Shown here piece by piece: positions 13,876-62,141 of a stretch of 64,000 nt of DNA (positions are counted from its first letter, which is position 1; each line of letters opens with the position of its first letter). A program made the translations under genes and the position numbers. The notes below the pieces were generated by a model, which was given only the letters and a program-made list of their open reading frames with translations, made no database searches and was not told the DNA's origin. This DNA comes from a virus (taxonomy: Duplodnaviria; Caudoviricetes): the IMG/VR virus record IMGVR_UViG_3300024331_000007, positions 96,001 to 160,000 of that record. One strand, given 5' to 3'.

Positions 13876-14011
13876 TTTCTTTCCTCTTGTCACGCCTATA
13901 ACAAATCAACATGATTTGAATAAAACAATACACTGCCCCGGCAATTATGAAGCCAGCAAAGCCAAAAGTCAGAGCCAGCAATATTGTTAAATCCCACAAG
14001 GTTGTGGTCAT
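13853..14011 (-). CDS. small membrane protein (52 aa, not in ORF track)
   Basis: ATGA-coupled to the RNA ligase stop; MTTTLWDLTILLALTFGFAGFIIAGAVYCF... Confidence 0.5.
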   Translation of the reverse strand: MTTTLWDLTILLALTFGFAGFIIAGAVYCFIQIMLICYRRDKRKENGKILVK

Positions 14012-15348: not shown

Positions 15349-15403
15349 GCGACACCTTTTCTGTAATTGTAGCAAATTTCCGAATGATTTGCAATAGGTT
15401 TAG

Positions 15404-24455: not shown

Positions 24456-24526
24456 ATTCAAATCCTCTCATTACTGCAATTGTTTTACATCAGCTTCCTT
24501 GCAATCTTCCGCAAGTTCATCGCCAT

Positions 24527-45721: not shown

Positions 45722-46813
45722 TTAAAGGTCCAACATGTGATCTAATGCCACATGCGCCCAATACTTCACCACGTCGCGAACCTTGATTTGATTTACAACA
45801 TTTCCAGAGACAAGATTCTCAAGTGCCCATGCCAAATGTTGTGGAGTGATTCGATACATTGTTGTGCAGAGGCAACCTTGCTCAGTCAGATTGAAAATCG
45901 TCTTTCCAAGTGGAGCGTACTTTTTCGCAAGACGATTCACAAGATGAATTTCGGTTCCGATTGCAAACTCTGTTCCAACAGGAGCAGCATCAACAATCTT
46001 GATGAGGCTTTCTGTCGAACCAACGGCATCTGCTTTCTGGCAAACTTCCCATTTGCATTCTGGATGAACAATCACTTTGATGTTTGGATGAGCAGCACGA
46101 ACATCATCAACGTGACTCGCAAGGAATCTCTGGTGAACGGCACAATGTCCTTTCCACAAAAGAATTTTACTGTGGTCATAATCAGCTTTACTCAAACTAC
46201 CCTGTAGCGCCCACGGATCATACACAGACATTTCATTCAAGGGAATGCCCATATTGTATCCAGTATTACGTCCAAGATGCTGATCTGGCAGAAATAAAAT
46301 TCGCTTTGCTTGCTTGAATGCCCACTCGAAAGCACGTTGCGCATTCGAAGAAGTACAAACCAACCCTCCGTGCTCACCCACAAATGCTTTGATAGCAGCC
46401 GTCGAGTTCATATATGTAATCGGAAGTGTTTCATCTGCCAGATGAAGCTTTTCCAATGTTTCCCAACACGCTTCAACTTGAGAAATTTCTGCCATATCAG
46501 CCATCGAACATCCAGCGTTTAAATCTGGAAGAATAACAATTTGGTCATGGCCCAAAATATCTGCGCTCTCAGCCATAAAATGAACGCCACAATAAACAAT
46601 GTACTTCGCATTTGTTTTCGCGCCATCTTTGGCGAGTTTAAAACTGTCACCTGTGAAGTCCGCAAACTTGATTACTTCGTCGCGCTGATAATGATGCCCC
46701 AAAATGACAACAGAATTACCCAGCGTCTTTCGAGCCGCAGCGATTCTATCGTCCATTGTATTATCGGGGTATTGCAGGTAATTTTCCAGTGTGCAAACTT
46801 GACCAGTTGCCAT
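45722..46813 (-). CDS. nadA: quinolinate synthase A
   Basis: ILGHHYQR, CGVHFMAE, AGCSMA, TYMNS, PDQHLG, WKGHCAVH, VHPEC, GTEIH, CTTM. Confidence 0.96.
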   Translation of the reverse strand: MATGQVCTLENYLQYPDNTMDDRIAAARKTLGNSVVILGHHYQRDEVIKFADFTGDSFKLAKDGAKTNAKYIVYCGVHFMAESADILGHDQIVILPDLNAGCSMADMAEISQVEACWETLEKLHLADETLPITYMNSTAAIKAFVGEHGGLVCTSSNAQRAFEWAFKQAKRILFLPDQHLGRNTGYNMGIPLNEMSVYDPWALQGSLSKADYDHSKILLWKGHCAVHQRFLASHVDDVRAAHPNIKVIVHPECKWEVCQKADAVGSTESLIKIVDAAPVGTEFAIGTEIHLVNRLAKKYAPLGKTIFNLTEQGCLCTTMYRITPQHLAWALENLVSGNVVNQIKVRDVVKYWAHVALDHMLDL

Positions 46814-48811: not shown

Positions 48812-49390
48812 TTATTTTTTGGCTGATCGGTTACGAGTGTGTGACCTAATGGTAATCAACATTTCGTTATGAAGATCAGCGAGAGCGCCAGCATCATTTT
48901 CAGCATCGTGCGGTCTGCCACGAAATTTCAATCCAACGGATTCCAATGCTTCTGATAGCGGCAACTTGTATTTCTGGTTGTATGCACTTCGCCACAAAAT
49001 ACCAAAATCCAAAATGCCATTAATTGACCACGGATTAGGACAGGAATATTTTGCGCAATGTTCGGAGATTGGTTCGTAATCGCTTCCCCACGCATATGTA
49101 ATTTTGGTTTGCGGAGCGAACTCTTTCTTAATTGTTCGCATAACTTCTGGAAAGTAGTGGCCCTCATCAATTATTTTTGAACGAGTGATTCCTGTCAGTT
49201 TTGTGCAATAGTCGCTGACCTCAAAATGCTTACTTTGGGGTCTGACGAAATAACTTTTTCGGCGTATGATCTTGAGCGTTTCGGATTCAACTTCTACGAT
49301 GCCCAATTGTATAATGTGGTTTGTTTGACCATGTGGACAGTCTCCGTTCTCCCAACAAAGCATCTCTGCATCCAAAAACTGTATTTTCAT
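48812..49390 (-). CDS. DEDDh 3'-5' exonuclease (ERI/KapD-like)
   Basis: FLDAE, IIQLG, LTGIT, AWGSD, HDAENDA. Confidence 0.85.
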   Translation of the reverse strand: MKIQFLDAEMLCWENGDCPHGQTNHIIQLGIVEVESETLKIIRRKSYFVRPQSKHFEVSDYCTKLTGITRSKIIDEGHYFPEVMRTIKKEFAPQTKITYAWGSDYEPISEHCAKYSCPNPWSINGILDFGILWRSAYNQKYKLPLSEALESVGLKFRGRPHDAENDAGALADLHNEMLITIRSHTRNRSAKK

Positions 49391-49430
49391 AATTATTCTT
49401 TCTGCCAGTGGCGTATTACTTGAAGTATAA

Positions 49431-49502
49431 CATAAATACAAATGCGATTCGCGGTGTTGAAGCACCCAATCGCCCTAACGCTATTATGGAGCGCCAGCTA
49501 TG
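49431..49502 (+). promoter_or_regulatory. late box plus conserved two-hairpin leader, copy 3
   Basis: CATAAATA; GCGATT-CGC-GGTG-6nt-CACC-C-AATCGC; CGCT-attatgg-AGCG; CAGC-TATG. Confidence 0.75.
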
Positions 49503-50162
49503 GATATTTACTCCGCAAAATTTTCCCAAGACAAAAAATTTTATGTTTACGAATATCTTCGCGCACATAAATCAAAATATGGTGATATTGGAAGTCCCTA
49601 CTATGTAGGTAAAGGAACTGGTAGTAGAGCGTTTTCAAACGATCATACCACCAAACCGCCAAAAGACAAAAACAATATTCGTGTTTCAAGTTTGATGAAC
49701 GAAGCTGACGCTTTTCAAAACGAAATGTTCAAAATTATGTTGTCGGGCCGTATTGATCTTGGAACTGGTTGCTTACGAAATAGGACTGACGGCGGCGAAG
49801 GTTCGTCTGGAGCAATTCGTACTCAAGATACAATTCGTAAATGCGTAGAAGTTAGAAAACGAAACAATTCTTACAAACGAACTAAAGAAGCAGACAAAAA
49901 AGCCAATGCAACAAAATTTAAAAATGGAACTCATCGTCGTAGCAAAGACTCTCTTATAAAACAAATCAATACTAGGCGAGAAAAAGGTAACTTGAATACC
50001 TGTACTCTTGAAAGTAGAAGAAAATCAGTAGAAACACGAAAAGCAAATGGAACTCTCGGTCGCACCAAGGAATCTATAGCAAAAGGTCTTGCCACACGAA
50101 TATCAAAATATGGCCCATTTGCAAAACCAAAGTTTGAATTGTATTTGCCTTGTATTCTTTAA
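49500..50162 (+). CDS. GIY-YIG endonuclease adjacent to the tmRNA gene
   Basis: FYVYEYLR...PYYVGKG, LRNRTDGGEG, basic repeats. Confidence 0.85.
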   Translation: MDIYSAKFSQDKKFYVYEYLRAHKSKYGDIGSPYYVGKGTGSRAFSNDHTTKPPKDKNNIRVSSLMNEADAFQNEMFKIMLSGRIDLGTGCLRNRTDGGEGSSGAIRTQDTIRKCVEVRKRNNSYKRTKEADKKANATKFKNGTHRRSKDSLIKQINTRREKGNLNTCTLESRRKSVETRKANGTLGRTKESIAKGLATRISKYGPFAKPKFELYLPCIL

Positions 50163-50164
50163 CA

Positions 50165-50480
50165 AGGAACAAGGCTAAAACCTCGGAGTAGTTTTTAGGC
50201 TACTGGCACCGCTACGCGGTTGAGAGCAACTGTGTAAGTTGCAATCTCGGCATTGCGGCCACTGTTGTTCACAGCAATTATAGTTTCCATTCCCTTAACG
50301 TCAGGCTTGGTACTCGGTTCGTAACTAACGCTATATTTGACCCGTCGAAACCTTGGCACCCACATTTGAAAAACGTAATACATAAATTGGTGTAGGTGGC
50401 GGGAATCGAACCCGCGTCCGAATCAGTATAACGTGAGTCTCTCTCACACGAACGTCATTCGCAAAAACATCTTTACGAAT
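50165..50480 (-). ncRNA. ssrA: circularly permuted (two-piece) tmRNA
   Basis: acceptor piece ends GCGGG-TTCGATT-CCCGC-CACCTAC-A-CCA at 50388; after a 24-nt spacer the coding piece starts GTGGGTG-CCAAGGTTTCGAC-GGG at 50363; G3.U70; resume context TATAATT-GCT; tag frame 50275-50195; outer ends approximate. Confidence 0.88.
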
Positions 50481-50482
50481 GT

Positions 50483-51018
50483 TTAGGACTTTTCAGTCCT
50501 GAGCTTCGATGCGGCCTTCACTAAATCCGCATCATATGTCACATGAAACTTTACTTCAAAATCTTCAACCTTCTTTCCAGTCTTCCCATCTAAAACTTGA
50601 GTCCGTTTCAAAGTGCTATTCAACTTTCCATCGCACTTTGTATTCTTTTTCTTCAACTCGTCAATGAAATTGAGAGCCTCAGAACATTTCGCAAAATCTT
50701 TTACAGTGAGGTTCATTAGTTTGAATACCTACGTGAACCTTTCCGATCAGTCAACCACTCCAGATTCACACGCTTCGCAGTTTCAGTATTCTCACCAGCA
50801 TCAACAAGTTTGTTCCAGACAGTCGCAAAATTTCGTGCGGCATCTTCAGGAACGTCAGCAGCAATAAACTGTCCAGTCACACCGTCAAAAACATCAACAG
50901 TGTCCATTAGCGCGTTTGGGTTTTGCGCAGGAACCAAAATTACGTGATTTCCAGCTTCGCGCAACTTTTCTGTGATTGCTTCATCAAACCATTTCGTCAT
51001 TTCGTTCCTACTTTCCAT
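50483..51018 (-). CDS. two hypothetical genes (50483-50716, 50716-51018)
   Basis: TAATG-coupled; both contain V(L/F)DG(K/V)TG. Confidence 0.6.
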
Positions 51019-51024
51019 TCATAG

Positions 51025-51582
51025 TTAGTTCGATTGCAAATTCCTTTTATATGGTCTTCGTAGCATATATTCTTTTACTTCTTTGCTTGCCCAATCTGGT
51101 TGAGAATCAAGGTCAACCAATAATCTGTTATGTCCAGCACAAATTTCACCCCTGTAATTATTCGGATTTATTTTCTGACCATCATGGTAATGATCCGAAT
51201 TGAGACGATTTGATTGAACTAAACAATTCGGAAATTGACAAACCCGCATCGCTCCCATTGCTTTGATTTCTTCTACTGTAAAACTTCCCTTCAAAAATCG
51301 ATCAAATCGAACATTACCACATTCTTTACATATAAATTTTTGCCTTCCGTGTTCACATATTTGTGATCCTTTACATTTCTTACAATGGCTTTTTCGCTTT
51401 CCGTGTTCACATATTCCAGCGCCACAACATTCCTTACATTGATATTTTAATCTGTTATGTTCACATATTCCCGAGCCATTACATAACCTACATCTAGTTC
51501 TTTGTTTTTTGTGTTCACATAAACCAGAACCATCACATTCTTTACATCGATCTTTACGTCTTCCATGTTTACAAGTAGTCAT
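51025..51582 (-). CDS. CEH zinc-repeat protein fused to an Endonuclease VII-like domain
   Basis: five 18-aa C(E/K)H....CK.C.G..I repeats, then C...C...SDHYH...RGEICAGHNRLL. Confidence 0.75.
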   Translation of the reverse strand: MTTCKHGRRKDRCKECDGSGLCEHKKQRTRCRLCNGSGICEHNRLKYQCKECCGAGICEHGKRKSHCKKCKGSQICEHGRQKFICKECGNVRFDRFLKGSFTVEEIKAMGAMRVCQFPNCLVQSNRLNSDHYHDGQKINPNNYRGEICAGHNRLLVDLDSQPDWASKEVKEYMLRRPYKRNLQSN

Positions 51583-51644
51583 GATGTTCCATTTTCAGTA
51601 TACAGCTATTTATTGCCGTTGTCAAGGTCAGTTATGACCAAAGT

Positions 51645-53591
51645 TTACATTTCCAGAGAAAGTAACACAGCCCTTTCTTTTGAAAGCTTTACAATCTGTG
51701 CAGAATTTTTTGAGATTGATTTGGATCGTTTTCCAGTTGAAAGACTCACTGATTTTTCGTTGATTTTAGTGATTCGCCCAACTTGAAGATTGGTGTAGTT
51801 AAAAGTTGCGTATGCAACCCAATCTCCAATAGTCAACTCTTCGCCAAGAAAATCTTTATATTTGGTTGGCAACACTGGTTTCGGTGGAGCAATAGTTTTT
51901 CTCGCTCTTTTGTCTGCTTTGTTTGCCTCAATAACTTTGGCGATGATTTCATCTTTTTCAGGAGATAGAATGATTACATTCTGCGTTTTTCTCCCCTCTT
52001 CAATAACGAAAATTACTTTGTTTCCAGCAGGATGGGCGTAAATCACTGTGCTGTCATTTGAATCTGGAGAGACTACATAATTGTTTGCCACTAGAAGTTT
52101 ACGAATCGAATCTTCTTTGAAGGAAAGCAAATTAGCAAGACGAGAGTAACGAACATCTCCAAATGTCCCTGAAACTAGATTTGTAACGGTAAACGTCGGA
52201 TCATAATTTGTGATGAGGTATAACTTTGTTGTCTTACATTTTGGACATGTGTACCTAGTAGTTTCAAGTTGATTCCACGAACCCCGCATAACATATGCAG
52301 TATATTCAGATGAAAATGTATGTCTGTATGGGCAACGCAATAATCCAAAAGCCATATGTTTATCCTTGTATGAACATTTGCAACATTGCTTGTTCATCTG
52401 TGAGTCGTATGATTTGTGTTGGCATCTTTTTAATAACGGTTTTCCTAGTTCTAACTCTTATGTGAACGCTTGTTCTGGTCAATTTTTCAACTTTGCCTAA
52501 AATAATTTTTCCATTATATGTGCCGCCATAACCTCTTATGTATCCTGTGCTATATGTTGTGGCAACCCAATCTGAAGGTTTTAGTTCGTTTCCGATGGCG
52601 TCTTTAACGACAACCTTTTTACCTTCTACCAATTCTGTCGGAACTTTGAAAACTTGTGCTGAGGTTTTTGTAATTGTTCGGCTTTTTCCATTGGGTAAAA
52701 CCACAACGCTATTTGTGTTAAAATCAACAACCTTTCCAAAAATAGATTTTCCCGTTGCTGTCTTATAAAAAGCAACCCAATCGTTGATCTGTATTTCCGA
52801 TCCAACACAATCTGTCATCATTGCTCCAATGCCATGAGCAAAGATTGCTCTGGCGTAAGTAAAAATATTTGTTCGGAAGTTTTGTACGGCAATACAATCT
52901 TTCCCTTTTGAATTTTCGCACCGATGAGCATTTGATCATCAGTATGCCACGAATTTTCTTTGAATTTCTCAATTGCCGTCACACGGCCAAACGACAAACT
53001 TTTAGTTCCCCACGCACAAACCCAGCATCCAACTGTTACATCATTTCCTCTTGCATCTTTCATTGAAGCAATCTTTGGCTTGGGTTTCGGTGCTGGTTCT
53101 GCCGCCTTGGCTGCTTTATCCACCTTCGCACATTCAATCAGTTTCGGGAATAATAGATCATCGGAGCAATGCAAGCCAATATACATTTCCGTTGTTTTGC
53201 GCTTCCGTGAGAACTTGAAAAGTACATATTCTTTCAGTTCGTTTTCCAAAATGATTTCAGTTTGTCCTGTTTTAGTTGGCGCGAATCCGTTTGCCTCCAA
53301 TGTATCCAGCAAAGAATCCTTTTTATAATTGCCATACGTGGATGAACCATAATTGTAGAACAATTCCTTAGCAAAGGTAACAACAATCATTTTTTTGAAT
53401 GTCAAGGCAGGATGAACATAATTAGCCAAAACTTTCGCATGTATGTTTGCGCAGTTTGGACATTTGGCAGTGAAACTATCTTTCGATGAAATCCAAAGAT
53501 GTTTGCAACCATATGTACATTCGTAGAGACTATGAATCTCTTTCTTCGTATTTGAATTTTGAAATGGAGTTCGAACTAGAATCGCTGGCAT
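51645..53591 (-). CDS. three genes sharing an SH3/KOW-like domain (51645-52397, 52360-52821, 52818-53591)
   Basis: four copies of KD..G.E...(G/N/S)DWVA...G(K/R)(I/V)...Q(I/V)..L..EQ. Confidence 0.75.
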
Positions 53592-53830
53592 TAGTCAAAA
53601 TCCTCATCGTCCCAAATTTTGCTGTTTCCATTGAAATGCTTGGAATCAGGATACAGAACAATTTCTTCCTCTTCATCCAACACGTCCCGCCACGTCTTTT
53701 TGTAACGGGATGGGCGTTGGTTCTTAGGAGTAATCACGAAGGATGCTTTGGGTGTACCAACACGATCACGCGCATTGCTCTTAACTGCGGAGACTTTGCT
53801 GAACGTCTGCTTTTTTCTTGACTTCGCCAT
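53591..53830 (-). CDS. small basic protein with acidic tail
   Basis: AAAGGGA SD; MAKSRKKQTFSKVSAVKSNARDRVGTPK. Confidence 0.65.
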   Translation of the reverse strand: MAKSRKKQTFSKVSAVKSNARDRVGTPKASFVITPKNQRPSRYKKTWRDVLDEEEEIVLYPDSKHFNGNSKIWDDEDFD

Positions 53831-53993
53831 AGTTCCCTTTCTTAGCAACCGTGAAATAAAACAAGGACAATGAAAACCCACGCAAAGACAGTCCAACGAT
53901 AATCCTTGTTGGCCTCATACTCATTACGAGGATTGCGTCTGCGATGACCGAAGTACGCAATAACAAAGATGATGAAAATCAGAGTCAGCATGT

Positions 53994-54656
53994 TTACCTT
54001 TCTTCGTCCAAATTGATTTCGTCCATACGTCGAACATCAAATTCGTTCAGACAGATGAATCGAGTGCCATTGAGATTCTTCATCCACGAAAAATGCCAAT
54101 GCCCAAAAAACCATATCTTCGGTTGATACGCTTCGAACATTGCCGATAACGCCTGTCCAGTGCGAGTCGGTTTTACTGACTCTTCTCGGTACGATCCATA
54201 ATTGCCAATGTTGAAACGAGTTAAAATCCACTGAGTTGCTTGATTAGGACCATCATGAGTAATCACAACATCGGGCTTGTATTCCAAATACAAATCAAAC
54301 GCTTCGCCCAATTCCTTGATAGTCAATTCCTCTTCAGGCCACCAAGAAATACCCTCGACTCGCATAGCACGATCAATGCTCCATGCGCCACTCAGATAAA
54401 AAACTCTGTGCCCGTCAATCTCAGCCGTTCCATAGTCACCCAAATAGTTTGGATGCGCACGACAGAAAGCAGGAGCATCATGATTCCCGCGAATAAATTT
54501 CATTTGCTTCGGAAAATCTGGGCTCTGAGATTTTGGAAACCCCAACCCCAAATCACCGACTTGAACAACAGTTTCATCTGGAAACTGTGCTTTCAACCGT
54601 TTCAATTCCTTTCTGAATCGATCCAACATTCCGTGTACATCGCCAACCAAAATCAT
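53994..54656 (-). CDS. calcineurin-like metallophosphoesterase
   Basis: GDVHG, GDLG, GNHD, SIDR, THDGP, FGHWH. Confidence 0.9.
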   Translation of the reverse strand: MILVGDVHGMLDRFRKELKRLKAQFPDETVVQVGDLGLGFPKSQSPDFPKQMKFIRGNHDAPAFCRAHPNYLGDYGTAEIDGHRVFYLSGAWSIDRAMRVEGISWWPEEELTIKELGEAFDLYLEYKPDVVITHDGPNQATQWILTRFNIGNYGSYREESVKPTRTGQALSAMFEAYQPKIWFFGHWHFSWMKNLNGTRFICLNEFDVRRMDEINLDEER

Positions 54657-54673
54657 AGTATGCTCCAGCCTCT

Positions 54674-54702
54674 AGTATATCAAAACAAAAGAGTTGCGTC
54701 AA
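54674..54702 (-). promoter_or_regulatory. sigma70-type promoter
   Basis: TTGACG-17-TATACT. Confidence 0.7.
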
Positions 54703-54757
54703 TAAAAACACAAAACCCTAAACCTATGAAAATACAGGGCTTAGGGTTTTGTTTTTT
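54703..54757. terminator. bidirectional terminator-like inverted repeat
   Basis: CAAAACCCTAA...TTAGGGTTTTG with A and T tracts on either side. Confidence 0.65.
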
Positions 54758-54766
54758 GGTAGAGAG

Positions 54767-55072
54767 CTACTCGCCAAAAACTATTGGATTTGTCTCAATG
54801 ATTGGTGCATCTTCGGGTGTTGGGACTGCTCCGCGTTTGTAATGTAACTTTCCTTGTCTCAATTCTTCCAGTGCAATCTTTGCAAAACGATGTGGAGGAA
54901 TTTCAATTCGCTTGAAAGGATTAAACTCTGAACCAACATTGCCCACTCCCTTGCGAATCGGCGCTCCATTCATTAATTGCCGGGTGCGATGCATAATAAC
55001 CTGAGCAAGTTGAAAGCGACTTCCTACTATTTCTTGATGCTGTTGAATTGTATTTGCGTCTTTTGATAACAT
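54767..55072 (-). CDS. rpoZ: RNA polymerase omega subunit homolog
   Basis: EIVGSRFQLAQVIMHRTRQL and AKIALEELRQGKL match omega K.GNRFDLV..AARRARQ / IALREI.EG. Confidence 0.75.
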   Translation of the reverse strand: MLSKDANTIQQHQEIVGSRFQLAQVIMHRTRQLMNGAPIRKGVGNVGSEFNPFKRIEIPPHRFAKIALEELRQGKLHYKRGAVPTPEDAPIIETNPIVFGE

Positions 55073-55085
55073 TGGACCCTCAAAA

Positions 55086-55337
55086 TCATTCGTTAGTTGC
55101 TGTTGTGGTTTCTTTCTCGTCTGTTTCTTGACCAGCATCATATCCTTTATTAAAGGCTTCTCGAATCTGACTGGTCAAATATGCGCTTACCATAATGACT
55201 GACATCATCGTAATTGTGTTGTATATTTTCGACACTATGATAACTGCACATAGAAATGCCGCAATCCAATTGTGAGTGTACAGGATGCCGCATTCCAAAA
55301 CAAATAAAGCGAGAAGTTGTGGTATGGATTTGTGCAT
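55086..55337 (-). CDS. small membrane protein
   Basis: hydrophobic N-terminal two thirds. Confidence 0.55.
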   Translation of the reverse strand: MHKSIPQLLALFVLECGILYTHNWIAAFLCAVIIVSKIYNTITMMSVIMVSAYLTSQIREAFNKGYDAGQETDEKETTTATNE

Positions 55338-55587
55338 GGTGGGGACAAAAACTCTATCATGCCATCAAGCATCTAAGTTTGGATATTTGTCAATTTCTTC
55401 AAGCAGCTTATTATACTTGTCCATTGCTGCTGTTTCTTGCCCAGACATTTTTCCCCGTTTCCATTTGGAGTGAAACGATACTACTGGACTGCGACTTCTA
55501 TGCCTTTAGGCTCCATCGCAGTCCATAAAACAATTTGGTGTTAATACTCTCTAAGTTTGTTTCAATCACTTATTAATTTCAGTTAGT

Positions 55588-56064
55588 TTACTTCTTCGCC
55601 GCAATCACCGCCGCTGCCTGAGCAGCCGCCTTCGCACGGATCGAACCACCCCGAGCAGTGCTGACGATTGTCTTCACGATGCTCTCTTGCGCTGGCGTTT
55701 CAGTTGTGTTTGGATTTGCCTTTGTGCTAGTCGCGGTAGACTTCACAAGGTTCTTTGTGGCAGGACGGCCACGCTTTGCAGGTACAGCCGTGCCATTTAG
55801 CTTGGCAACTTGCTTATTAATGTAAGCGGCCTTCTCATCAAGAGACGCGAGATTGACGCCTTCTGGCTTTACTTCCTTGAGATACGCAATTGCTTCCAGC
55901 TTTGTCATAGGCTTTGGCAATGAAACAAGCACAAATTCCTTATGACCGGCCTTTGTCATAACTGCTGGACGCGCATCAGGATCGTTGGCAAACCGCGCCT
56001 TGTAGACACCGTTGGGGTCTGCGCTTGAGCCAGCATATTTGAATGTGCGATTGTCAATGTTCAT
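55588..56064 (-). CDS. conserved phage protein with Lys/Ala/Thr-rich histone-like tail
   Basis: KARFAND...AGH...LPKPMTKLEA; KRGRP AT-hook-like motif. Confidence 0.7.
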   Translation of the reverse strand: MNIDNRTFKYAGSSADPNGVYKARFANDPDARPAVMTKAGHKEFVLVSLPKPMTKLEAIAYLKEVKPEGVNLASLDEKAAYINKQVAKLNGTAVPAKRGRPATKNLVKSTATSTKANPNTTETPAQESIVKTIVSTARGGSIRAKAAAQAAAVIAAKK

Positions 56065-56210
56065 AGTTTTCATTTCCTTTGTTAGGCTTTGCCTAACGTT
56101 ATGTGAGCAACTTTGTTGTCTCACGGTTGAATTTTGCATCTCGAACCAATCAGTCGTTGGATCGGTGCGCGTAGCTTTGGTATCAGAATAGCATTATGAA
56201 GTACCAAATG

Positions 56211-56510
56211 TCAAGAGTTTTTTCCGATTGTTACTGAAATAGTCTTAGTTCTTTGTTTTGAGGCATCTACAGAGTCTCTTTTTTCCAGCCGATAGTTAAG
56301 TTCAAACATTAGCTTGTTTTTGTACAATTCCAGAGCAAAATCCATCGCCCAACCCACTAAAGCGGCACTCCAATAGATGATTATACAGACCAAAGTGAAT
56401 CGAAACCATCCATCGTGGGGAGTTTTCGTGAACTCGGCGGTCTGAATCAGCCAGCCCGTCATTAAAAGCATGTACCAATGTTCTTTTAGAAAACGCCAAA
56501 CTTTTGACAT
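56211..56510 (-). CDS. membrane protein
   Basis: two TM segments; own promoter TTGACA-18-TATACT at 56531-56560. Confidence 0.6.
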   Translation of the reverse strand: MSKVWRFLKEHWYMLLMTGWLIQTAEFTKTPHDGWFRFTLVCIIIYWSAALVGWAMDFALELYKNKLMFELNYRLEKRDSVDASKQRTKTISVTIGKNS

Positions 56511-56650
56511 TTGTGTTCCTTCCTGTTGCCAGTATATCAAATTCTGGTGTTCCGTGTCAACCCCAAAGTTTGACAATAAACAATTCAAACTCTCAACTTT
56601 GACACTTCGATAAATATAGAAGCCGCATAAATACAGCAGAGGGATCGTTA

Positions 56651-57067
56651 ATGCCAATTAAACAGACTTCAAAAATCCAAGTTCGTTCGGGACTTCAGCA
56701 AAACTTGCCACAACTGGCAAAAGGCGAATTAGGTTGGGCCGTTGATACGCAGCGTCTGTACATCGGCAATGGCAATGTTTCTGATGGCGCTCCATTTCAA
56801 GGAAACACTGAAATTATCACTGTCGTTTCTAGCCCGTCAACACCTATCAACATTCCCGTTTCTGGCACTTTTCAGCAAACACCTGATGGTATTCGTACTG
56901 TATTCACAACAACTGGAAACGTGGCACCAGAACCTAATACGATGATTGTTTGGGTTAATTTTCCCCTCGTACCGGGCATTGGTTTTACAACTACTGGTTC
57001 TCAGGTTACCTTCACAACCGCACCGGGAGCTACAGACAACCTCTTCTGGCAAGGTTGGATTTCATAA
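56651..57067 (+). CDS. virion protein with Mtd-N/hyaluronidase-N-like motif
   Basis: LPQLAKGELGWAVDTQRLYIGNG; two late boxes at 56609 and 56626. Confidence 0.7.
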   Translation: MPIKQTSKIQVRSGLQQNLPQLAKGELGWAVDTQRLYIGNGNVSDGAPFQGNTEIITVVSSPSTPINIPVSGTFQQTPDGIRTVFTTTGNVAPEPNTMIVWVNFPLVPGIGFTTTGSQVTFTTAPGATDNLFWQGWIS

Positions 57068-57083
57068 AGAAAAAGGATGGCGA

Positions 57084-58205
57084 TTACTCGCCATCCACAC
57101 GGAATACAGAATCGCCCGAAGGTTCAACCATTTTCCAAATCATTGTATCAATCTTTTTGCCGTCCAACAAACCAAACAAAAGACCTGAATACTTACGATT
57201 TTGTTCCATCGTGAAGTACTCCGCCATCTTCTTACGTGATTCCTTGTAAGGTGTAAATGGGTCAAGTTGAGGGCGATTCACGTAGATCACGTTCACTGCG
57301 TTGTAAATCGCTTCATACTTTTCCGTCAAGGACAAAACAACACCCTTAACCCACGTCTTAAACGTATCAGGCATACGCGCATCTGAAAGCCAACCGTTTA
57401 CGGTTTCCATCTGTCCGTCACGCAACAATTCCCACACAGAACGAACGTTCAAACCCGTCAGAATCTTGTGAAGACGAACATACTCATCAAACTTGACCTT
57501 AACTTTCAGGCCAGTTGAAGGATACGTCAAAACATAACCTTCACGATTCTTGTCATTCTCGGCAAGTGACTCGGAAAGCGTCTTACGATATTCCTTGACG
57601 ACTTCCAAACCCATCGCACGACAATAATCCTTCACATTTGAACGCGAAGCCTCCACACCAGTTTCGATATTCACCGCTCCCAAAATTACCAGACCTTCAA
57701 AATCATAGTCCACGACAATTTTGTTCTCGGAATAAATTACTTCCGAAACAAGCGTATAATCCTTCAGCAACGTCAACGAAGGATATCGCGAACGCAACCA
57801 ATTCGTAGCCCATTCCGCTTGTTCTGAATGGAAAGCACCGCGAGTTGCAACGTGATTTAAACCATCCCACGCGAACATCGTACCCATTGAACCATCCAAC
57901 TTCTCAAGGAAAATTGCCTGTTCCTTCGGCAAGTTTTTCTCTAACGTTTCGGGGTGACGATCATCATTCAGATTCCAAAACTTTGCAAATGGACGCGCAA
58001 CAACCTCATTGTTGTCCATGCAATACACAAGACCGCGAGACAAATTCATCTCGTTACCCCAAATCAGCTTAGGGTCGTACTGTGCTTGCGGCGTATAATT
58101 CAACACTGCCAGAGGATACTGACGGTGAATTTTACGCGAGATGTAGCCTTCGTGAATCAAACGATTCAAGTTCTCCACATCCATGATTTGTGACAACTGA
58201 ATCAT
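57084..58205 (-). CDS. RNA ligase, T4 Rnl1-like
   Basis: RGLV, RPFAKFWN, motif I EKLDGS, EVIY, EGYV, KVKFDEY. Confidence 0.88.
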   Translation of the reverse strand: MIQLSQIMDVENLNRLIHEGYISRKIHRQYPLAVLNYTPQAQYDPKLIWGNEMNLSRGLVYCMDNNEVVARPFAKFWNLNDDRHPETLEKNLPKEQAIFLEKLDGSMGTMFAWDGLNHVATRGAFHSEQAEWATNWLRSRYPSLTLLKDYTLVSEVIYSENKIVVDYDFEGLVILGAVNIETGVEASRSNVKDYCRAMGLEVVKEYRKTLSESLAENDKNREGYVLTYPSTGLKVKVKFDEYVRLHKILTGLNVRSVWELLRDGQMETVNGWLSDARMPDTFKTWVKGVVLSLTEKYEAIYNAVNVIYVNRPQLDPFTPYKESRKKMAEYFTMEQNRKYSGLLFGLLDGKKIDTMIWKMVEPSGDSVFRVDGE

Positions 58206-58945
58206 TATATTTCCTTATCTTTTCCATTTGGCGTCAATTGACGAACATAATTAAGCTGAGTCGTCTGATTGCCCTTGTTCTTGATGCGTCCCGAAATGTT
58301 GTACGTGTTGCCCTTCGTCCAATTCTTTTTGTCAAAGAAAAACACAACACGATTTCCAAGTACGTTATTTACAAGTGCGTTTACCGCTGTCGAATTGAAG
58401 CGATCCTTGTAAATTGCATCGATGACAGTTATATTCAGATGGACCGTTTCACCGAGATGATTGTCCAGCGGAATGCTCTCATTCGTTGCGTTGCTGAGTG
58501 CTTCGCGCTCTTTGTTGCGCTGAATGTTGCGCTCATAGATCGAAGGAAGCGAAGCAATGAGCATAATCATTGGCCCTGCTTCGGGAACTCCCTCAGTTGT
58601 AGCAGCCTCAACAGCAGCCTTGATAAAATCCTTCGCTGTGCCTTCAAACACAAGCGTAATCATGCTGCAAAAATATTCGCGGACCTGTTCGCCTCGTACA
58701 TAATCTTCAGGAGTAATATCAGAACGGTCTGACGCAAGCATGACCTTAATCATGGAACCGTTTGGAAGTTTTGTTGCGTTCGGATCAGTTTTCGGAGGAT
58801 TCGGATTCGCGTAACTGCCACGAAAATTTTGCGTGTTTGTGCGTTTCACATATTCCCCGTTGATTCTCTGGGCAGCAACCGCAGCCGCGAACACATCAGC
58901 GCGATTGTAAAACTTTGGCTCTACGTTTTCGTCAACCGTTTTCAT
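58205..58945 (-). CDS. conserved phage protein with C-terminal OB-like region
   Basis: AVAAQRINGEYVK; TTQLNYVR end. Confidence 0.65.
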   Translation of the reverse strand: MKTVDENVEPKFYNRADVFAAAVAAQRINGEYVKRTNTQNFRGSYANPNPPKTDPNATKLPNGSMIKVMLASDRSDITPEDYVRGEQVREYFCSMITLVFEGTAKDFIKAAVEAATTEGVPEAGPMIMLIASLPSIYERNIQRNKEREALSNATNESIPLDNHLGETVHLNITVIDAIYKDRFNSTAVNALVNNVLGNRVVFFFDKKNWTKGNTYNISGRIKNKGNQTTQLNYVRQLTPNGKDKEI

Positions 58946-58959
58946 TACCTTTTCTCCAA

Positions 58960-59566
58960 TTAAGAGCAAAACCACGCTTCTTTGTTGCAGTCACCGTTGA
59001 ACGACTTGATTTCCGTTACCATCCTGCGAACATCTTTCGCAGTGTACGTTACCATTTCATGAGTTGAACCTGTATATGTTATGTCTTTTTCGCGCAACCG
59101 TTTTATGTACGGAGTCTGGGTTGCTCGCATCAACCAAGTTCCAAGACGTTCACATGCAGCGCGTGAATCACGCACAAGAAAAGTGTAATCATAATGCGTT
59201 CCTGAGAAATGCGCCAATGTATTGATCGGCGTTTTCATATACGTCAAAGGTCCGATAAACTCTTTCATTACCTTTTCTCCCATAAATTTGTCATAGTTCA
59301 CAATTCTGTTCATCTTCTATGACTTCATCAAGTTCACGAAACTTTTGAGGTAAAACGCCATCAAAAGCATCAATTACGCTTTCTGGAAGAGTAACATTTT
59401 GAAAGTTAATATCAAACGAATGAAGGATATGGCGAATTACATCTTCGGCCAACCCAGCAGTTCGCATGGTTCCATCTACATACAGGGCATATATATCGCC
59501 CTCCAAAGTATGCACAACTTTGACATCAGAACTGCGAAGAATCATCTTATACCCCTTCAACAACAT
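58960..59566 (-). CDS. two hypothetical genes (58960-59268, 59291-59566)
   Basis: SD-preceded ORFs; promoter TTGACT-17-TATACT at 59571-59599. Confidence 0.6.
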
Positions 59567-59640
59567 ATCCAGTATACCAAACTCGCTGAATTAAGTCAAG
59601 TATATAAACACTATTGATTTTAAAGGGTTTAGAGACAGAA

Positions 59641-59665
59641 AGAGCGGGGCGCTTTGGCCTCGCTC
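59641..59665 (-). terminator. GC hairpin after the HTH gene
   Basis: GAGCGAGG...CCCCGCTC-TTCTGTCTC on minus. Confidence 0.5.
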
Positions 59666-59689
59666 AATCGATTTGACAAAAACTAAAAG

Positions 59690-59938
59690 TTATGCCTTTG
59701 TGTAGCTGACTTCTGAACCCCATCTGTCACGGCGACTCACGCTATACTTGTTCAAACCATCGCGGGTCTTTTCGACGCGAACGTTCAAACCAGCTTGACG
59801 AAGTTCGGACATACGTGCTCTCAGGTTACCGATACCAAACTGGCTCTTTGCCTGACGAGCAGTGAGAGTGCGACCTGTTCCACGAAGATAATCATGGAGG
59901 AACACATTCTGCGTTGTGTTAATGTTTGTAAATGCCAT
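59690..59938 (-). CDS. winged HTH DNA-binding protein
   Basis: LTARQAKSQFGIGNLRARMSELRQAG; AAGGAG SD; promoter at 59991-60020. Confidence 0.75.
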   Translation of the reverse strand: MAFTNINTTQNVFLHDYLRGTGRTLTARQAKSQFGIGNLRARMSELRQAGLNVRVEKTRDGLNKYSVSRRDRWGSEVSYTKA

Positions 59939-60056
59939 ATAGTCTAATTCTCCTTATCAAGCAAATGGCTTGATTTTTGTAATTGTTACCAGTATACTGC
60001 ATCTTTTAAAAACGAGTCAAGCTAAATATTAACATCACGAAATACAGGAGCGTTTT

Positions 60057-60395
60057 ATGCCATATGCTATTATAGGAACTTTGGTGTTTTTGGCGTTGCT
60101 CGGTGGAATTATCTTTTACGCCATTCAACAGGCAAAGAAACAGGATCAGGAAGAATTAAAGTCTTCCGCTGAATTTGCCGAAGCTTGTACTTTTAAGGAA
60201 CCTGAAATTGCAGAGGAAGCTGTCAAGATTGAATTGGCAATGGAACCAAAAGTTTCCAAAAAACCTGCCAAAATGAAGGCAAAGAAAAAGTCCAAGAAAC
60301 CTGTTAAGAAAGAAGTTATCGTAACTGAAACTTTTGAATTTCCGACCGTTGCTCCAAAGCCACGCAAACCACGAGCAAAGAAACCTACTGTTTAA
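60057..60395 (+). CDS. late membrane-anchored Lys-rich protein
   Basis: N-terminal TM; CAGGAG SD; GCTAAATA at 60021. Confidence 0.7.
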   Translation: MPYAIIGTLVFLALLGGIIFYAIQQAKKQDQEELKSSAEFAEACTFKEPEIAEEAVKIELAMEPKVSKKPAKMKAKKKSKKPVKKEVIVTETFEFPTVAPKPRKPRAKKPTV

Positions 60396-60567
60396 CAGCG
60401 TTTTTCGCTATTATAATACATAGAAGTCGGTCAATATATTCATCGACTGTTTCGTAAGGCGGTTGAATCTTGCAATTAGGATCGCCGCCTTCAAGGTCGC
60501 ATTCACATCCTGCTTCATATCCATGTCCAGCAGTTCTACGCCACAATTCTTTCGGAACTTCTATCAT
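60385..60567 (-). CDS. hypothetical protein
   Basis: ATGA-coupled to clpS. Confidence 0.5.
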   Translation of the reverse strand: MIEVPKELWRRTAGHGYEAGCECDLEGGDPNCKIQPPYETVDEYIDRLLCIIIAKNAVKQ

Positions 60568-60878
60568 TCCGCGTCTTCCTTGATTTCTGCGACCAAGGGA
60601 AAAGACTCAGCGCGAGCCTTTACAATAACCAAATCTCGCAAATGAGAAGCAAGCTCTTTTGTAAGACTATTCACGACTTCGCCCTGTCCGACAGAATCAA
60701 TTCGAGAGGTTATGGCCGCAGCAGCATCATATGGGTGACCAAAAACCTCCATTATAACGCGCACAACAAACTCCGCGCTGGTTACTTCGTCATTAAACAA
60801 AACAACGCTGTAGCGAGGTGGGCGCTTGAGGTCGGTTTCAACTTTTACTTTGGTTAGAATATCGCATGCAGTTGTCAT
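60564..60878 (-). CDS. clpS: ClpS-like protease adaptor
   Basis: PPRYSVVLFNDEVTSAEFVVRVIMEVF...G...A. Confidence 0.85.
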   Translation of the reverse strand: MTTACDILTKVKVETDLKRPPRYSVVLFNDEVTSAEFVVRVIMEVFGHPYDAAAAITSRIDSVGQGEVVNSLTKELASHLRDLVIVKARAESFPLVAEIKEDAE

Positions 60879-60890
60879 ACTTCAACAATA

Positions 60891-62141
60891 CTACGATTTA
60901 GTCTTTTTGGCAACCGATTTTTTCTCAAATATTTCGATTTTTGGTATTTCCTTTTTATCTACACAGTTGCCGTGAAAAGTAACTTTGGCCACTCTTCGCT
61001 TTTGGTACTCTGGAATAATGTATAAATGTGGTAACATGATGGCGTCACAAATAGATCGAAGACCTCGAACTCCAGTTTTTTCAGTTTTTGCTTGATGTGC
61101 AACTCTTTCCAAAAAGTCGTTGGTAAATTCCAAATCTATCCCATCCACGTTAAAGTAGAATTTGTATTCAGCTAGAATGTTGTTCTTTGCATTAGTAAGA
61201 ACTTCCAAGAGTTCAACTTCAGTTAGCTCTTTTGTGTGGGTTTTCATTGGAAATCTCCCCACAAATTCTGGAATCATACCAAACTCTACGAAATCTTCAG
61301 TGACATATTCGGCATCAAGATTTTGGGTAGCTGCAACTGCGGCATCTCCGAAGCCAAGTCCCTTCTTTTTCTTTAATCGAGTAGTCACAATGTCCGTCAT
61401 TCCGATGAACGCACCACCACAAATGAATAACATATTCGAAGTATTAACTTCCACTACCTTTGGCGCTCTTTTTGAGTCTGGATTTAACGTAACTGGTATG
61501 ACCGTTCCTTCAACCATCTTCAATAATGCAGACTGGATGCCTGATACTTTAGCTTCCGATGCAGTGGCGCGATTCTTCGTAGTGATCTTGTCAATTTCAT
61601 CTATGAACACAATACCATTTTCGGCTGCATTGATGTCACCATTAGCTTCCATTAGCAAGCGTGTGATGATAGTATCAACATTTTGACCAATATATCCAGC
61701 TTCAGTAAGAGTTGTGGCATCTACAGCTATGAAAGGAACATCCAGAAACTTTGCAACGGTACTCACCAGCAGGCTTTTTCCACTTCCACTCGGCCCGGTA
61801 ATCATTAAGTTACTCTTATTCAGATCACTTCCTTCGTGTTCGTAGAGCATCCTCTTATAATGATTTACCACGCTGACGCAAATAGCCATTTTTGCCGTCT
61901 CTTGGCCGATCACAAACTGGTCCATGAACTCTCTAATCTTTATACTATTGAGTTGTTCAACCAATTGCTTCTTTTCTGCCACTTGCGAAGGAACAATCTC
62001 AGACGCAGGGGTGCTCTTGAGCAGGCCGTTGAACAGGATTATGCATTTGTCGCATATCGAGTAGTCACCGCTTACGACCATCTTGAGGCTCTCACCTCTA
62101 CTTTTTTTGCAGAAAGTACATTTGATGGGATTTTTAGTCAT
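60891..62141 (-). CDS. clpX: ClpX ATPase
   Basis: C4 Zn domain, VIGQETAK, GPSGSGKS, TEAGYIG, DEIDK, LFICGGAF, LGF loop, TGVRGLR. Confidence 0.95.
   Translation of the reverse strand: MTKNPIKCTFCKKSRGESLKMVVSGDYSICDKCIILFNGLLKSTPASEIVPSQVAEKKQLVEQLNSIKIREFMDQFVIGQETAKMAICVSVVNHYKRMLYEHEGSDLNKSNLMITGPSGSGKSLLVSTVAKFLDVPFIAVDATTLTEAGYIGQNVDTIITRLLMEANGDINAAENGIVFIDEIDKITTKNRATASEAKVSGIQSALLKMVEGTVIPVTLNPDSKRAPKVVEVNTSNMLFICGGAFIGMTDIVTTRLKKKKGLGFGDAAVAATQNLDAEYVTEDFVEFGMIPEFVGRFPMKTHTKELTEVELLEVLTNAKNNILAEYKFYFNVDGIDLEFTNDFLERVAHQAKTEKTGVRGLRSICDAIMLPHLYIIPEYQKRRVAKVTFHGNCVDKKEIPKIEIFEKKSVAKKTKS

Follow-up and report, generated by a model that had tools for sequence, protein, structure and literature searches.

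Two-piece tmRNAs are described by the Rfam family RF04321 (lineage models RF01849, alpha, and RF01850, beta), with a gene order of acceptor piece, CCA, spacer and coding piece. The intervening segment is excised during maturation, and the charged tmRNA contributes one extra N-terminal alanine to the mature tag. Phage-borne tmRNAs occur in large phages that carry ssrA without smpB, such as Bacillus phage G, cluster C mycobacteriophages (PMC4131195) and Sinorhizobium phage AP-J-162 (PMC11242549), SmpB being supplied by the host (PMC4131195). Besides its tmRNA, phage G has genes for ClpX, ClpP and a UAA-reading suppressor tRNA; its tag terminates in LQVA (PMC12484599). In E. coli, ssrA tags ending in LVA are degraded almost as fast as those ending in LAA (PMC3511798).

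Recognition of such tags by ClpX is dominated by the Ala-Ala end, whose carboxylate terminus is bound in the E. coli enzyme by T199, V202, R228 and H230; the substitutions T199A, V202A and H230A raise KM strongly, and R228A reduces ssrA specificity (PMC7652416). In human mitochondrial ClpX both 199 and 230 are leucine, and ssrA substrates are not degraded (PMC7652416). Co-evolution of a tag with a different protease is known from Mycoplasma, where, according to PMC8403727 (citing Gur and Sauer 2008), ClpXP is absent and Lon reads a long, hydrophobic tag of 27 residues that has diverged from the ...LAA type.

A two-piece tmRNA with a long tag

The window analysed here is a 64,000-nt stretch (positions 96,001 to 160,000) of the 360-kb record IMGVR_UViG_3300024331_000007, a jumbo phage from soil (G000), which was compared with the sister phages G001 and G004. 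Like phage G, it has a tag ending in -VA and encodes ClpX, a ClpP-like protein in which Ser-His-Asp is retained, and a UAA-reading suppressor tRNA. A ClpA-like protein is also present; neither Lon nor FtsH was found among the phage-encoded proteins. The features discussed below are collected in the table.

Table. Features of the tmRNA and clpX region, with positions counted from the first nucleotide of the window.
Feature	Positions	Strand	Basis
Quinolinate synthase NadA (host marker)	45722..46813	(-)	Pfam, 330 bits
DnaQ/KapD-like 3'-5' exonuclease, directly downstream of tmRNA	48812..49465	(-)	NCBIfam, synteny
Two-piece (permuted) tmRNA gene, outer bounds	50104..50480	(-)	ARAGORN
tmRNA core	50234-50453	(-)	Rfam RF04321 tmRNA_permuted
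Coding piece, 3' end approximate	50170..50363	(-)	Rfam match, sequence, covariation
Tag frame: resume codon GCT, 26 codons (AVNNSGRNAEIATYTVALNRVAVPVA), stop TAA	50195..50275	(-)	ARAGORN, sister-phage comparison
24-nt intervening segment, CCA end to 5' end of coding piece	50364..50387	(-)	Sequence, Rfam alignment
Acceptor piece (3' half of tRNA-like domain): T-arm (GCGGG/CCCGC), 3' acceptor strand CACCUAC, then encoded ACCA	50388..50453	(-)	Rfam match, sequence
Two small conserved ORFs (100 aa, 77 aa), directly upstream of tmRNA	50483..51018	(-)	Synteny
T4 Rnl1-type RNA ligase, between clpX and tmRNA	57084..58205	(-)	Pfam, synteny
clpS-like adaptor gene, immediately downstream of clpX	60564..60878	(-)	Pfam ClpS, 65 bits
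clpX (416 aa, P0001)	60891..62141	(-)	NCBIfam equivalogs, alignment to E. coli ClpX
ClpP-docking tripeptide L262-G263-F264 (E. coli IGF)	61350..61358	(-)	Alignment
RKH-loop equivalent T218-P227 (TLNPDSKRAP)	61461..61490	(-)	Alignment
Pore-2 loop N190-Q203 (NRATASEAKVSGIQ)	61533..61574	(-)	HMMER and MAFFT alignments
Pore-1 loop G149-Y150-I151-G152	61686..61697	(-)	Alignment to E. coli GYVG
C4 zinc-binding N-domain (C8, C11, C30, C33)	62043..62120	(-)	Pfam zf-C4_ClpX

A first-pass annotation of this DNA had proposed a phage tmRNA and quoted a 26-residue tag ending in PVA. Both are borne out, since ARAGORN calls the gene and predicts the identical tag, and RF04321 matches over its full length (model positions 1-213) with 87.1 bits against a cut-off of 47. 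The gene is circularly permuted, a detail absent from that annotation: as in other two-piece tmRNAs, the 3' strand of the acceptor, with its encoded CCA, lies upstream of the 5' strand. The coding piece holds the 5' acceptor strand GUGGGUG, helix 2, the pseudoknot region, the tag frame and a downstream hairpin, and acceptor pairing begins with G1-C, U2-A and G3-U70. The 24-nt segment between the pieces would be excised. A 32-nt T-arm/acceptor string of this gene is also found in another phage contig, G003.

Across the three phages, compensatory changes affect 22 of the 65 predicted tmRNA pairs. All seven acceptor pairs and all five T-arm pairs are kept with such changes, helix 2 also covaries, and G3:U70 is invariant. 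Judged by this helix covariation and by conservation of the tag peptide, the tmRNA signal exceeds chance. Because SmpB was not found in the 360-kb phage record, the tmRNA must rely on host SmpB.

The tag frame resembles that of other two-piece tmRNAs in its alanine resume codon, terminal stop and non-polar C-terminus, but is longer than usual. It is open and ends in TAA in all three phages, with 27 codons in G001 and 23 in G004, whereas tags in the other phages compared here and in the probable host have 9-14 codons. Over their 23-27 residues the three tags share E(I/V)..Y...VPV(x)A, the sister tags ending in Val-Leu-Ala and Val-Met-Ala and that of G000 in Pro-Val-Ala. Between G000 and G001, codons 1-9 comprise 2 identical, no synonymous and 7 non-synonymous positions, and codons 10-27 comprise 5 identical, 7 synonymous and 5 non-synonymous ones. 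As read from these alignments, the E(I/V)..Y core and the VPV(x)A end are kept by peptide-level selection, which implies that some reader exists. The description of the tag end as non-canonical holds in part: the ssrA-type motif for ClpX, Ala-Ala after a hydrophobic residue, is missing from the VPVA terminus, but a C-terminal -VA is within the known range, occurring in phage G and in three phages with tags ending in LMVA.

The first 13 codons resemble an ordinary A-x-N...E-I-A-A tag. When the phage tmRNA is forced into an end-to-end alignment with the Rfam model, the terminal GCN-GCN-UAA of the model is placed on GCA-ACU-UAC, and the stop falls on UAC in both G000 and G001. This alignment makes it probable that the tag was lengthened when the old stop became a tyrosine codon, with readthrough to the next stop. 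No phage protein ends with a tag-like VPVA motif, and there is thus no sign of wider use of this degron.

Position and flanking genes of the tmRNA are conserved among the long-tag phages, the 100-aa and 77-aa ORFs forming the left edge of the slot and the exonuclease its right edge. In all three, tmRNA and clpX share a strand, with the tmRNA 10-11 kb downstream. The RNA ligase, which served as synteny anchor for fetching relatives, is accompanied in the tmRNA block by a phosphoesterase, and this neighbourhood suggests a role in repair of the translation apparatus.

The phage ClpX and its equivalents of the ssrA-reading loops

The phage ClpX passes the NCBIfam equivalogs NF003745 (402 vs 359 bits) and TIGR00382 (371.2 vs 370.75 bits) and its alignment with E. 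coli ClpX 8e91 spans the proteins from end to end (HMMER, E 3e-93). Its identity to the ClpX of any cultured phage does not exceed 41%. It shares with the E. coli protein the family, domain order, zinc finger, pore-1 tyrosine and type of docking loop. The zinc-binding domain scores 32.5 bits against 27 with PF06689, and its four cysteines are invariant in two alignments. The Walker A and B motifs, arginine finger and sensor 2 are conserved (GPSGSGKS, DEID, GRFP, RGLR and GYIG in alignment with E. coli), pore-1 differs only by isoleucine for V154, and GLGF at residues 261-264 would provide an IGF-type docking loop. Matches of the adjacent clpS-like gene to NCBIfam ClpS models are below cut-off.

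The two loops that in E. coli read the ssrA end are different. The motifs quoted earlier for this protein (GYIG, GLGF, TLNPDSKRAP and ATASEAKVSGIQ) are all found in the alignments, and pore-2 lacks 2-3 residues relative to the canonical NPSITRDVSGEGVQ. The aligners (HMMER, MAFFT) differ at two positions, matching E. coli T199 with A194 or E196 and V202 with A197 or V199. In the RKH loop, R228 is replaced by S223 and H230 by R225, while K229 is kept as K224. Four of six ssrA-reading positions are therefore changed (T199, V202, R228 and H230), with V202 retained under one aligner, and the E. coli-type set of these four residues is not present. The phage enzyme thus resembles human mitochondrial ClpX, in which motor and ClpP docking are kept, the T199 and H230 equivalents are lost and ssrA is not degraded (PMC7652416); the human protein belongs to a separate lineage with leucine replacements, whereas the phage ClpX is nearer to bacterial ClpX overall. 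Its residues make it probable that the phage ClpX leaves host ALAA-tagged proteins alone and serves other clients.

Within the crown clade of phages with derived loops, pore-2 follows the pattern [NT]R.[ST]..(D/E)..[KR][VI][SA]G[IV]QS. This non-random composition favours a retained, possibly new, function over decay. The RKH-equivalent loop is considerably variable inside the derived-loop clade.

Tag and loops among relatives and in the probable host

Each of the three phages with the long VPV(x)A tag also has the derived ClpX loops. Nine other phages with both ClpX and tmRNA all have canonical loops and short tags ending in AA or VA. Canonical loops go with the LMVA tags of three phages and, in our alignment, with the 13-residue tag of phage G.

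Acidobacteriaceae are probably the host family, as suggested by the phage NadA, which is 68-75% identical to NadA of this family and whose best 80 genome matches all fall within it. Unlike the phage, the family has a one-piece tmRNA, with the tag ANDNLALAA, and its ClpX is canonical, with RKH and ITRDVSGEGVQQ loops.

Derived-loop ClpX sequences form one clade with 100/100 support on a long branch, so the association reflects a single evolutionary event and not covariation. Two deeper members of this clade, G006 and G054, retain the flanking genes of the slot, but with small ORFs and no tmRNA between them; neither a permuted nor a one-piece tmRNA was found on their contigs (196 kb and 125 kb), which are only 53-59% complete. 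The loops changed a single time, at the root of the clade, and its deeper members lack a tmRNA at the slot; the change therefore preceded the tmRNA or was independent of it. Other phage ClpX lineages have lost the RKH motif as well, on contigs that show no tmRNA.

The first-pass annotation had proposed that tag and unfoldase may have co-diverged, and had named loop changes in relatives lacking a tmRNA as an observation against this. Co-occurrence (3/3 against 0/9) and the canonical host pair agree with co-divergence, but they concern one clade only, and G006 and G054 provide in part, given their incomplete contigs, the contrary observation. A matched pair would change jointly on independent occasions, and its reader would never occur without the tag; neither pattern is seen in this set, which includes the incomplete G006 and G054 contigs.

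Explanations and their meaning

The reading towards which we lean, from comparison of the sequences, is that tag and ClpX represent distinct specialisations that arose separately within a single jumbo-phage lineage, and are not shown to be matched. A functional two-piece tmRNA would rescue ribosomes stalled during infection, using SmpB and presumably also AlaRS and EF-Tu of the host, while the block with RNA ligase and phosphoesterase may repair damaged translation apparatus. Rescued products would receive the 26(+1)-residue tag. Its likeliest reader would be an AAA+ protease accepting non-polar C-termini; candidates are host ClpXP, ClpAP, Lon and FtsH, and the phage ClpA-like protein or ClpX with the ClpP-like protease. 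The phage ClpX, with its motor, zinc finger, pore-1 tyrosine and docking loop, would serve other clients, its loops having been altered before the tmRNA was present or without need of it.

A private tag-reader pair is a possible arrangement that the comparison does not support. We consider it unlikely that the phage tag and ClpX pore loops form a matched degron-reader pair, with the phage ClpX and a ClpP selectively removing phage-tagged proteins while host ClpXP keeps ALAA. The joint occurrence of long tag and derived loops would fit such a pair, as would the ANDNLALAA tag and fully canonical loops of the probable host, selection on the C-terminal two-thirds of the tag, the unfolding and ClpP-docking features of the phage ClpX and the conserved placement of the tmRNA downstream of clpX. 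There is also the Mycoplasma precedent (PMC8403727), although Lon is the reader there, whereas this phage has ClpX and encodes no Lon or FtsH. Against the pair stand the single origin of the association, the derived loops of G006 and G054 with no tmRNA at the slot or on their incomplete contigs, the variability of the RKH-equivalent loop, the non-AA tags of phage G and the LMVA phages, which came without loop changes, and the lack of phage proteins ending in a VPVA-like motif. An orthogonal channel, with host ClpXP reading the VPV(x)A tag poorly and the remodelled phage ClpX reading it specifically, is rather unlikely; if it were true, the phage and not the host would decide the fate of rescued proteins.

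Decidedly unlikely, in our judgement, is rescue without host-directed destruction, in which the phage tmRNA competes with that of the host, ClpX is unrelated to the tag, and host SspB/ClpXP reads the tag poorly, so that the host protease is spared or general proteases act slowly. The tag does lack the Ala-Ala terminus on which recognition by ClpX chiefly depends (PMC7652416) and, after position 3, the host ANDN head; its N-terminal third evolves freely, and the deeper relatives retain ClpX without a tmRNA. However, the conserved E(I/V)..Y and VPV(x)A imply a specific reader, and a hydrophobic end plus alanine is degron-like, LVA being degraded well in E. coli (PMC3511798). That the tmRNA is a functionless, decaying relic, its long frame an accident of the lost stop, is very improbable: a tyrosine codon does occupy the canonical stop position, ARAGORN misses the genes of G001 and G004, and G004 barely exceeds the Rfam cut-off (48.6 vs 47 bits), but the acceptor and T-arm pairs and G3:U70 are maintained in three phages, the extended frame stays open to its TAA with synonymous substitutions, and the locus keeps its position and neighbours.

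Both tmRNAs and ClpX genes have been described in phages before, but to our knowledge nobody has shown what role either plays in infection. The NadA match links a clade of 360-kb phages to Acidobacteriaceae, and we know of few characterised phages of the Acidobacteria, a soil phylum. This lineage offers a clean test case, in which the ALAA tag and RKH/pore-2 ClpX of the probable host face a second tmRNA and ClpX from the phage. The tag itself, with its probable origin by stop-codon loss, would illustrate how a degron can be extended. If tag and ClpX are matched, nature would have produced an orthogonal degron-unfoldase pair based on ClpX, of interest to phage biology and to synthetic biology, which currently depends on the Lon system of Mesoplasma. 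In the unmatched case, the ClpX clade would be a natural experiment in rebuilding the ClpX entrance.

A two-piece tmRNA with a long tag

ARAGORN detected a single tmRNA in the window, and the tag that it reads is identical to the one that the first-pass annotation had described as non-canonical. The permuted-tmRNA model RF04321 of Rfam was matched over its full length (87.1 bits; cut-off, 47), which identifies the molecule as a two-piece tmRNA. The tags of the sister phages G001 and G004, read from sequence, are AANRINGVNEIATYNVVRNQVNVPVLA and ANSVNDGTEVYTHSVKIRVPVMA, respectively. Across these three tmRNAs, all acceptor and T-arm pairs are preserved through compensatory changes, and the G3:U70 pair is invariant. 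When tag codons 10-27 of the phage under study (G000) were compared with those of G001, 5 were identical, 7 synonymous and 5 non-synonymous, against 2, 0 and 7 for codons 1-9. This synonymous bias indicates that the C-terminal two-thirds of the tag, E(I/V)..Y ... VPV(x)A, is selected as a peptide. We conclude with high confidence that the tmRNA is functional and that recognition of its tag occurs at the peptide level. When contigs from four DNA runs were compared with the locus, a second soil sample yielded identical pieces, and pile-ups occurred on the conserved T-arm.

In G000 the terminal GCN-GCN-UAA of the Rfam model falls on GCA-ACU-UAC, and in G001 it falls on GCA-ACC-UAC; the first 13 tag codons have the length and appearance of an ordinary A-x-N...IAA tag. 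From this forced alignment we infer that the tag was probably lengthened when a former stop codon turned into a tyrosine codon. All three long tag frames end with UAA. The IMG/VR source record (359,890 bp, 41% G+C, an estimated ~90% complete), whose bases 96001-160000 form the window, contains 52 tRNA genes, including two CUA (amber) and one UUA (ochre) suppressors at G000:C1:24352-25279, outside the window. An active ochre suppressor could lengthen the tag; the peptides resulting from read-through past the UAA show no conservation between phages. In Bacillus phage G, a UUA suppressor likewise accompanies a tmRNA and ClpXP (PMC12484599).

A 32-nt string covering the T-arm and the 3' acceptor strand is identical to L006 2648-2679 on contig G003, an otherwise unrelated-looking phage with the tag ANDQEYRIAA. 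G001 and G004 differ from G000 in their T-arm, which has a 9-nt loop. The shared string arose either by convergence on the consensus or because the tRNA-like domain was exchanged. Other jumbo-phage tmRNAs (L099 and L104; G041 and G014) pass the cut-off of the betaproteobacterial two-piece model RF01850 and have ANDxx[FY]ALAA tags; the two-piece tmRNAs of this ClpX-bearing phage group seem to derive from at least two bacterial lineages.

Features of the tmRNA-clpX region and related genes, in window coordinates
Feature	Coordinates	Strand	Description
NAPRTase-family gene	22881-24461		
RNA-ligase-family gene	14008-15375		
nadA	45722-46813		
DnaQ/KapD-like exonuclease gene			after tmRNA
tmRNA	50104-50480	minus	
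Tag frame	50275-50195	minus	resume codon GCU 50275-50273, 26 sense codons, UAA 50197-50195
Coding piece	begins at 50363	minus	begins GUGGGUG; U2-A and G3:U70 (alanine identity) among the stem pairs
Spacer	24 nt	minus	between acceptor and coding pieces
Acceptor piece	ends at 50388	minus	first in order; ends ...CACCUAC-ACCA
T-arm and 3' acceptor strand string	50388-50419		32 nt
Calcineurin-like phosphoesterase (metallophosphoesterase) gene	53994-54656		between clpX and tmRNA
T4 Rnl1-type RNA ligase gene	57084-58205		between clpX and tmRNA
clpS-like gene	60564-60878		directly after clpX
clpX	60891-62141	minus	
PP2C phosphatase and phosphoribosyltransferase genes			precede clpX

The phage ClpX, its gene surroundings and the probable host

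The ClpX has 416 residues, with an AAA_2 domain and a zinc finger of the ClpX kind. It scores above both NCBIfam equivalog cut-offs for ClpX and aligns over residues 6-401 with E. coli ClpX 8e91 (E 3e-93). It retains Walker A and B, the arginine finger, sensor 2, pore-1 (GYIG) and the ClpP-docking loop (GLGF). The reported retention of the latter two loops is thus borne out, and alignment to E. coli ClpX also confirmed the replacements quoted for the pore-2 and RKH regions. Cryo-EM and mutants of the E. coli ClpXP-ssrA complex showed that the Ala-Ala carboxylate end is held by the side chains of six residues, Y153, V154, T199, V202, R228 and H230 (PMC7652416). The corresponding residues in the phage enzyme are Y and I for the first two, A194 (HMMER) or E196 (MAFFT) for T199, A197 or V199 for V202, S223 for R228 and R225 for H230. 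Mutations T199A, V202A and H230A steeply raise the KM of E. coli ClpX, and R228A reduces ssrA specificity while turning the enzyme toward an N-terminal degron (PMC7652416). By analogy with these mutants and by homology to human ClpX, the phage protein would be active as an unfoldase and has probably ceased to recognise ALAA-type tags.

Other phage genes encode a ClpA-like protein of 769 residues and a divergent ClpP-like protein (G000 179995-180411 region) in which Ser, His and Asp are retained; SmpB, SspB, Lon and FtsH (the last two looked for as protease domains) are not encoded. The ClpP-like gene lies ~22 kb from clpX and is far more divergent (98 bits) than the well-conserved ClpP (215 bits) of the related phage G006 (L169, G006:C1:87262-87810), located 5.6 kb from the clpX of that phage. 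Across this jumbo-phage group a clpS-like gene is adjacent to, or within a few kb of, clpX (in the window and also at L011, L005, L018 and L004), sometimes with an HSP20 gene in between. ClpS is the adaptor of ClpA in bacteria, and the ClpA-like gene is ~165 kb distant from the clpX/clpS-like pair. This pairing of ClpX and ClpS genes is unusual, and N-degrons might be delivered to this ClpX.

The two RNA-ligase-family genes and the calcineurin-like phosphoesterase gene lie in a co-directional block shared with the tmRNA. This set resembles a module for RNA repair and ribosome rescue, by analogy with the one that T4 has against host anticodon nucleases. No function was obtained from PHROGs or NCBIfam for the small ORFs adjoining the tmRNA. 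When all phage ORFs were scanned for C-termini resembling the tag (PV.A or E..Y...VPV), only a spurious ORF overlying the tmRNA was found, so no built-in degron mimicry is seen in the phage.

NAD-synthesis genes (NadA and a NAPRTase-family gene) are carried by the phage. The phage NadA shares 68-75% identity with the enzymes of Terracidiphilus, Telmatobacter and other Acidobacteriaceae, and its best 80 genome matches all belong to this family. The host is probably a member of the Acidobacteriaceae, judging from this probable host-derived gene. Five genomes from this family carry a one-piece tmRNA with the tag ANDNLALAA or ANNNFALAA, one being read by ARAGORN as ARKTKVANDNLALAA. These tags differ from that of the phage, which is therefore no duplicate of the host tag. 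The host-family ClpX has GYVG, NPSITRDVSGEGVQQ, PPQGGRKHP and LGF in 4 of the 5 genomes; a full ClpX match was not found in the fifth (G056). An infected cell would contain a canonical and a deviant pair together, which is the strongest point for the proposal that the phage tag and ClpX form a private, co-diverged pair.

Distribution of tags and loops among related phages

When the phage collection was searched with the 12-kb region for near-identical DNA, nothing matched. The close relatives are the IMG/VR contigs G001 and G004 (ClpX 68% and 71% identical). They share the gene order of the window, and their permuted tmRNA has the same flanking genes and lies 10-11 kb downstream of clpX. None of these flanking genes is shared with distant tmRNA-bearing phages. 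The tag-coding core pattern occurred at six IMG/VR loci, with a tmRNA only in the G001 contig; the other five had no Rfam match and were rejected. A profile search of IMG/VR yielded 80 ClpX-bearing contigs, of which 50 were searched for a tmRNA. The contigs of two ClpX representatives, P0002 and P0005 (5.6 and 11.5 kb), are too short to reach the tmRNA site. A permuted tmRNA above cut-off was present in 9 of the 50; together with G001, G002 and the window, this makes twelve phages that carry both genes.

In the three phages with a long VPV(x)A tag, pore-1 reads GYIG, the pore-2 loop is shortened (...[KR]V[SA]G[IV]QSALLK) and RKH is missing. The other nine have GYVG, ITRDVSGEGVQQ and RKH or KKH, and their tags are ANDxx[FY]ALAA, ADENLALAA, AANDDAYLMAA or ANDxQFLMVA; ClpX loops are near-canonical also in the LMVA-tag phages. 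Tag and loop state are thus perfectly split, 3 versus 9. In a maximum-likelihood tree, however, all derived-loop ClpX proteins fall into one clade on a long branch (100/100 support), so the split reflects a single event rather than repeated covariation.

Deeper members of this clade are the G005-type phages (ClpX 57% identical), G054 (54%) and G006 (50%, on a very long branch of 2.1 substitutions per site), for which regions downstream of the RNA ligase gene were fetched by a metagenome scan and from genome regions. In G006, homologues of the two genes that flank the tmRNA site are separated by 1.1 kb, a stretch filled by three closely spaced ORFs; in G054 the distance is 1.35 kb, with small ORFs and no tmRNA-like sequence. 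Rfam, nhmmer and ARAGORN found no permuted or one-piece tmRNA on the G006 (196 kb) and G054 (125 kb) contigs, which are 53% and 59% complete. Clearly, the derived ClpX occurs without a tmRNA at the conserved site. The first-pass annotation had named loop changes in relatives without a tmRNA as evidence against its proposal; such relatives exist as far as this site is concerned, and for the genomes as a whole the result extends to these partial contigs.

The same three methods detected no tmRNA in G005 and its relatives, but their contigs end or rearrange before the site, which makes the absence uninformative; a weak match in this group was a tRNA cluster. In G005, synteny is lost 4.7 kb beyond the RNA ligase gene and the genes of the site are absent from the contig; the IMG/VR contigs of this type are shorter than a 292-kb metagenome contig. 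Outside the clade, RKH has disappeared more than once among phage ClpX lineages with no tmRNA on their contigs, e.g., L029 and L038 (contigs of 215 and 246 kb).

Possible roles of the remodelled ClpX and the long tag

Phage tmRNAs are already known (PMC4131195, PMC11242549, PMC12484599), and phage ClpX genes are widespread, with 297 matching phage records. In the literature searched, we found neither a clade-wide 23-27-residue tag ending in VPV(x)A on a two-piece tmRNA in phages whose probable host family has a one-piece tmRNA, nor a ClpX clade whose pore-2/RKH entrance has been rebuilt. The tag of Bacillus phage G is AKLNITNNELQVA (PMC12484599), and in our alignment its ClpX has textbook loops, unlike the ClpX studied here. 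In E. coli, LacI carrying an ssrA variant ending in LVA has a half-life of ~13 min, versus ~8 min with LAA (PMC3511798); a -VA end is therefore in itself no barrier to canonical proteases. The known precedent for a tag that changes its reader is the 27-residue Mycoplasma tag read by Lon (PMC8403727).

It is more likely that remodelling of the ClpX entrance came first and served other clients; ClpS is its constant neighbour, and R228A shifts E. coli ClpX to an N-terminal degron (PMC7652416). The long-tag tmRNA would then have been either gained in the crown group or lost from the deeper branches. That the phage tag and ClpX are a matched pair is possible but appears unlikely, being unsupported by the distribution in relatives. 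Candidate readers of VPV(x)A are host ClpXP, ClpAP, Lon or FtsH, or the ClpA-like or ClpX protein of the phage.
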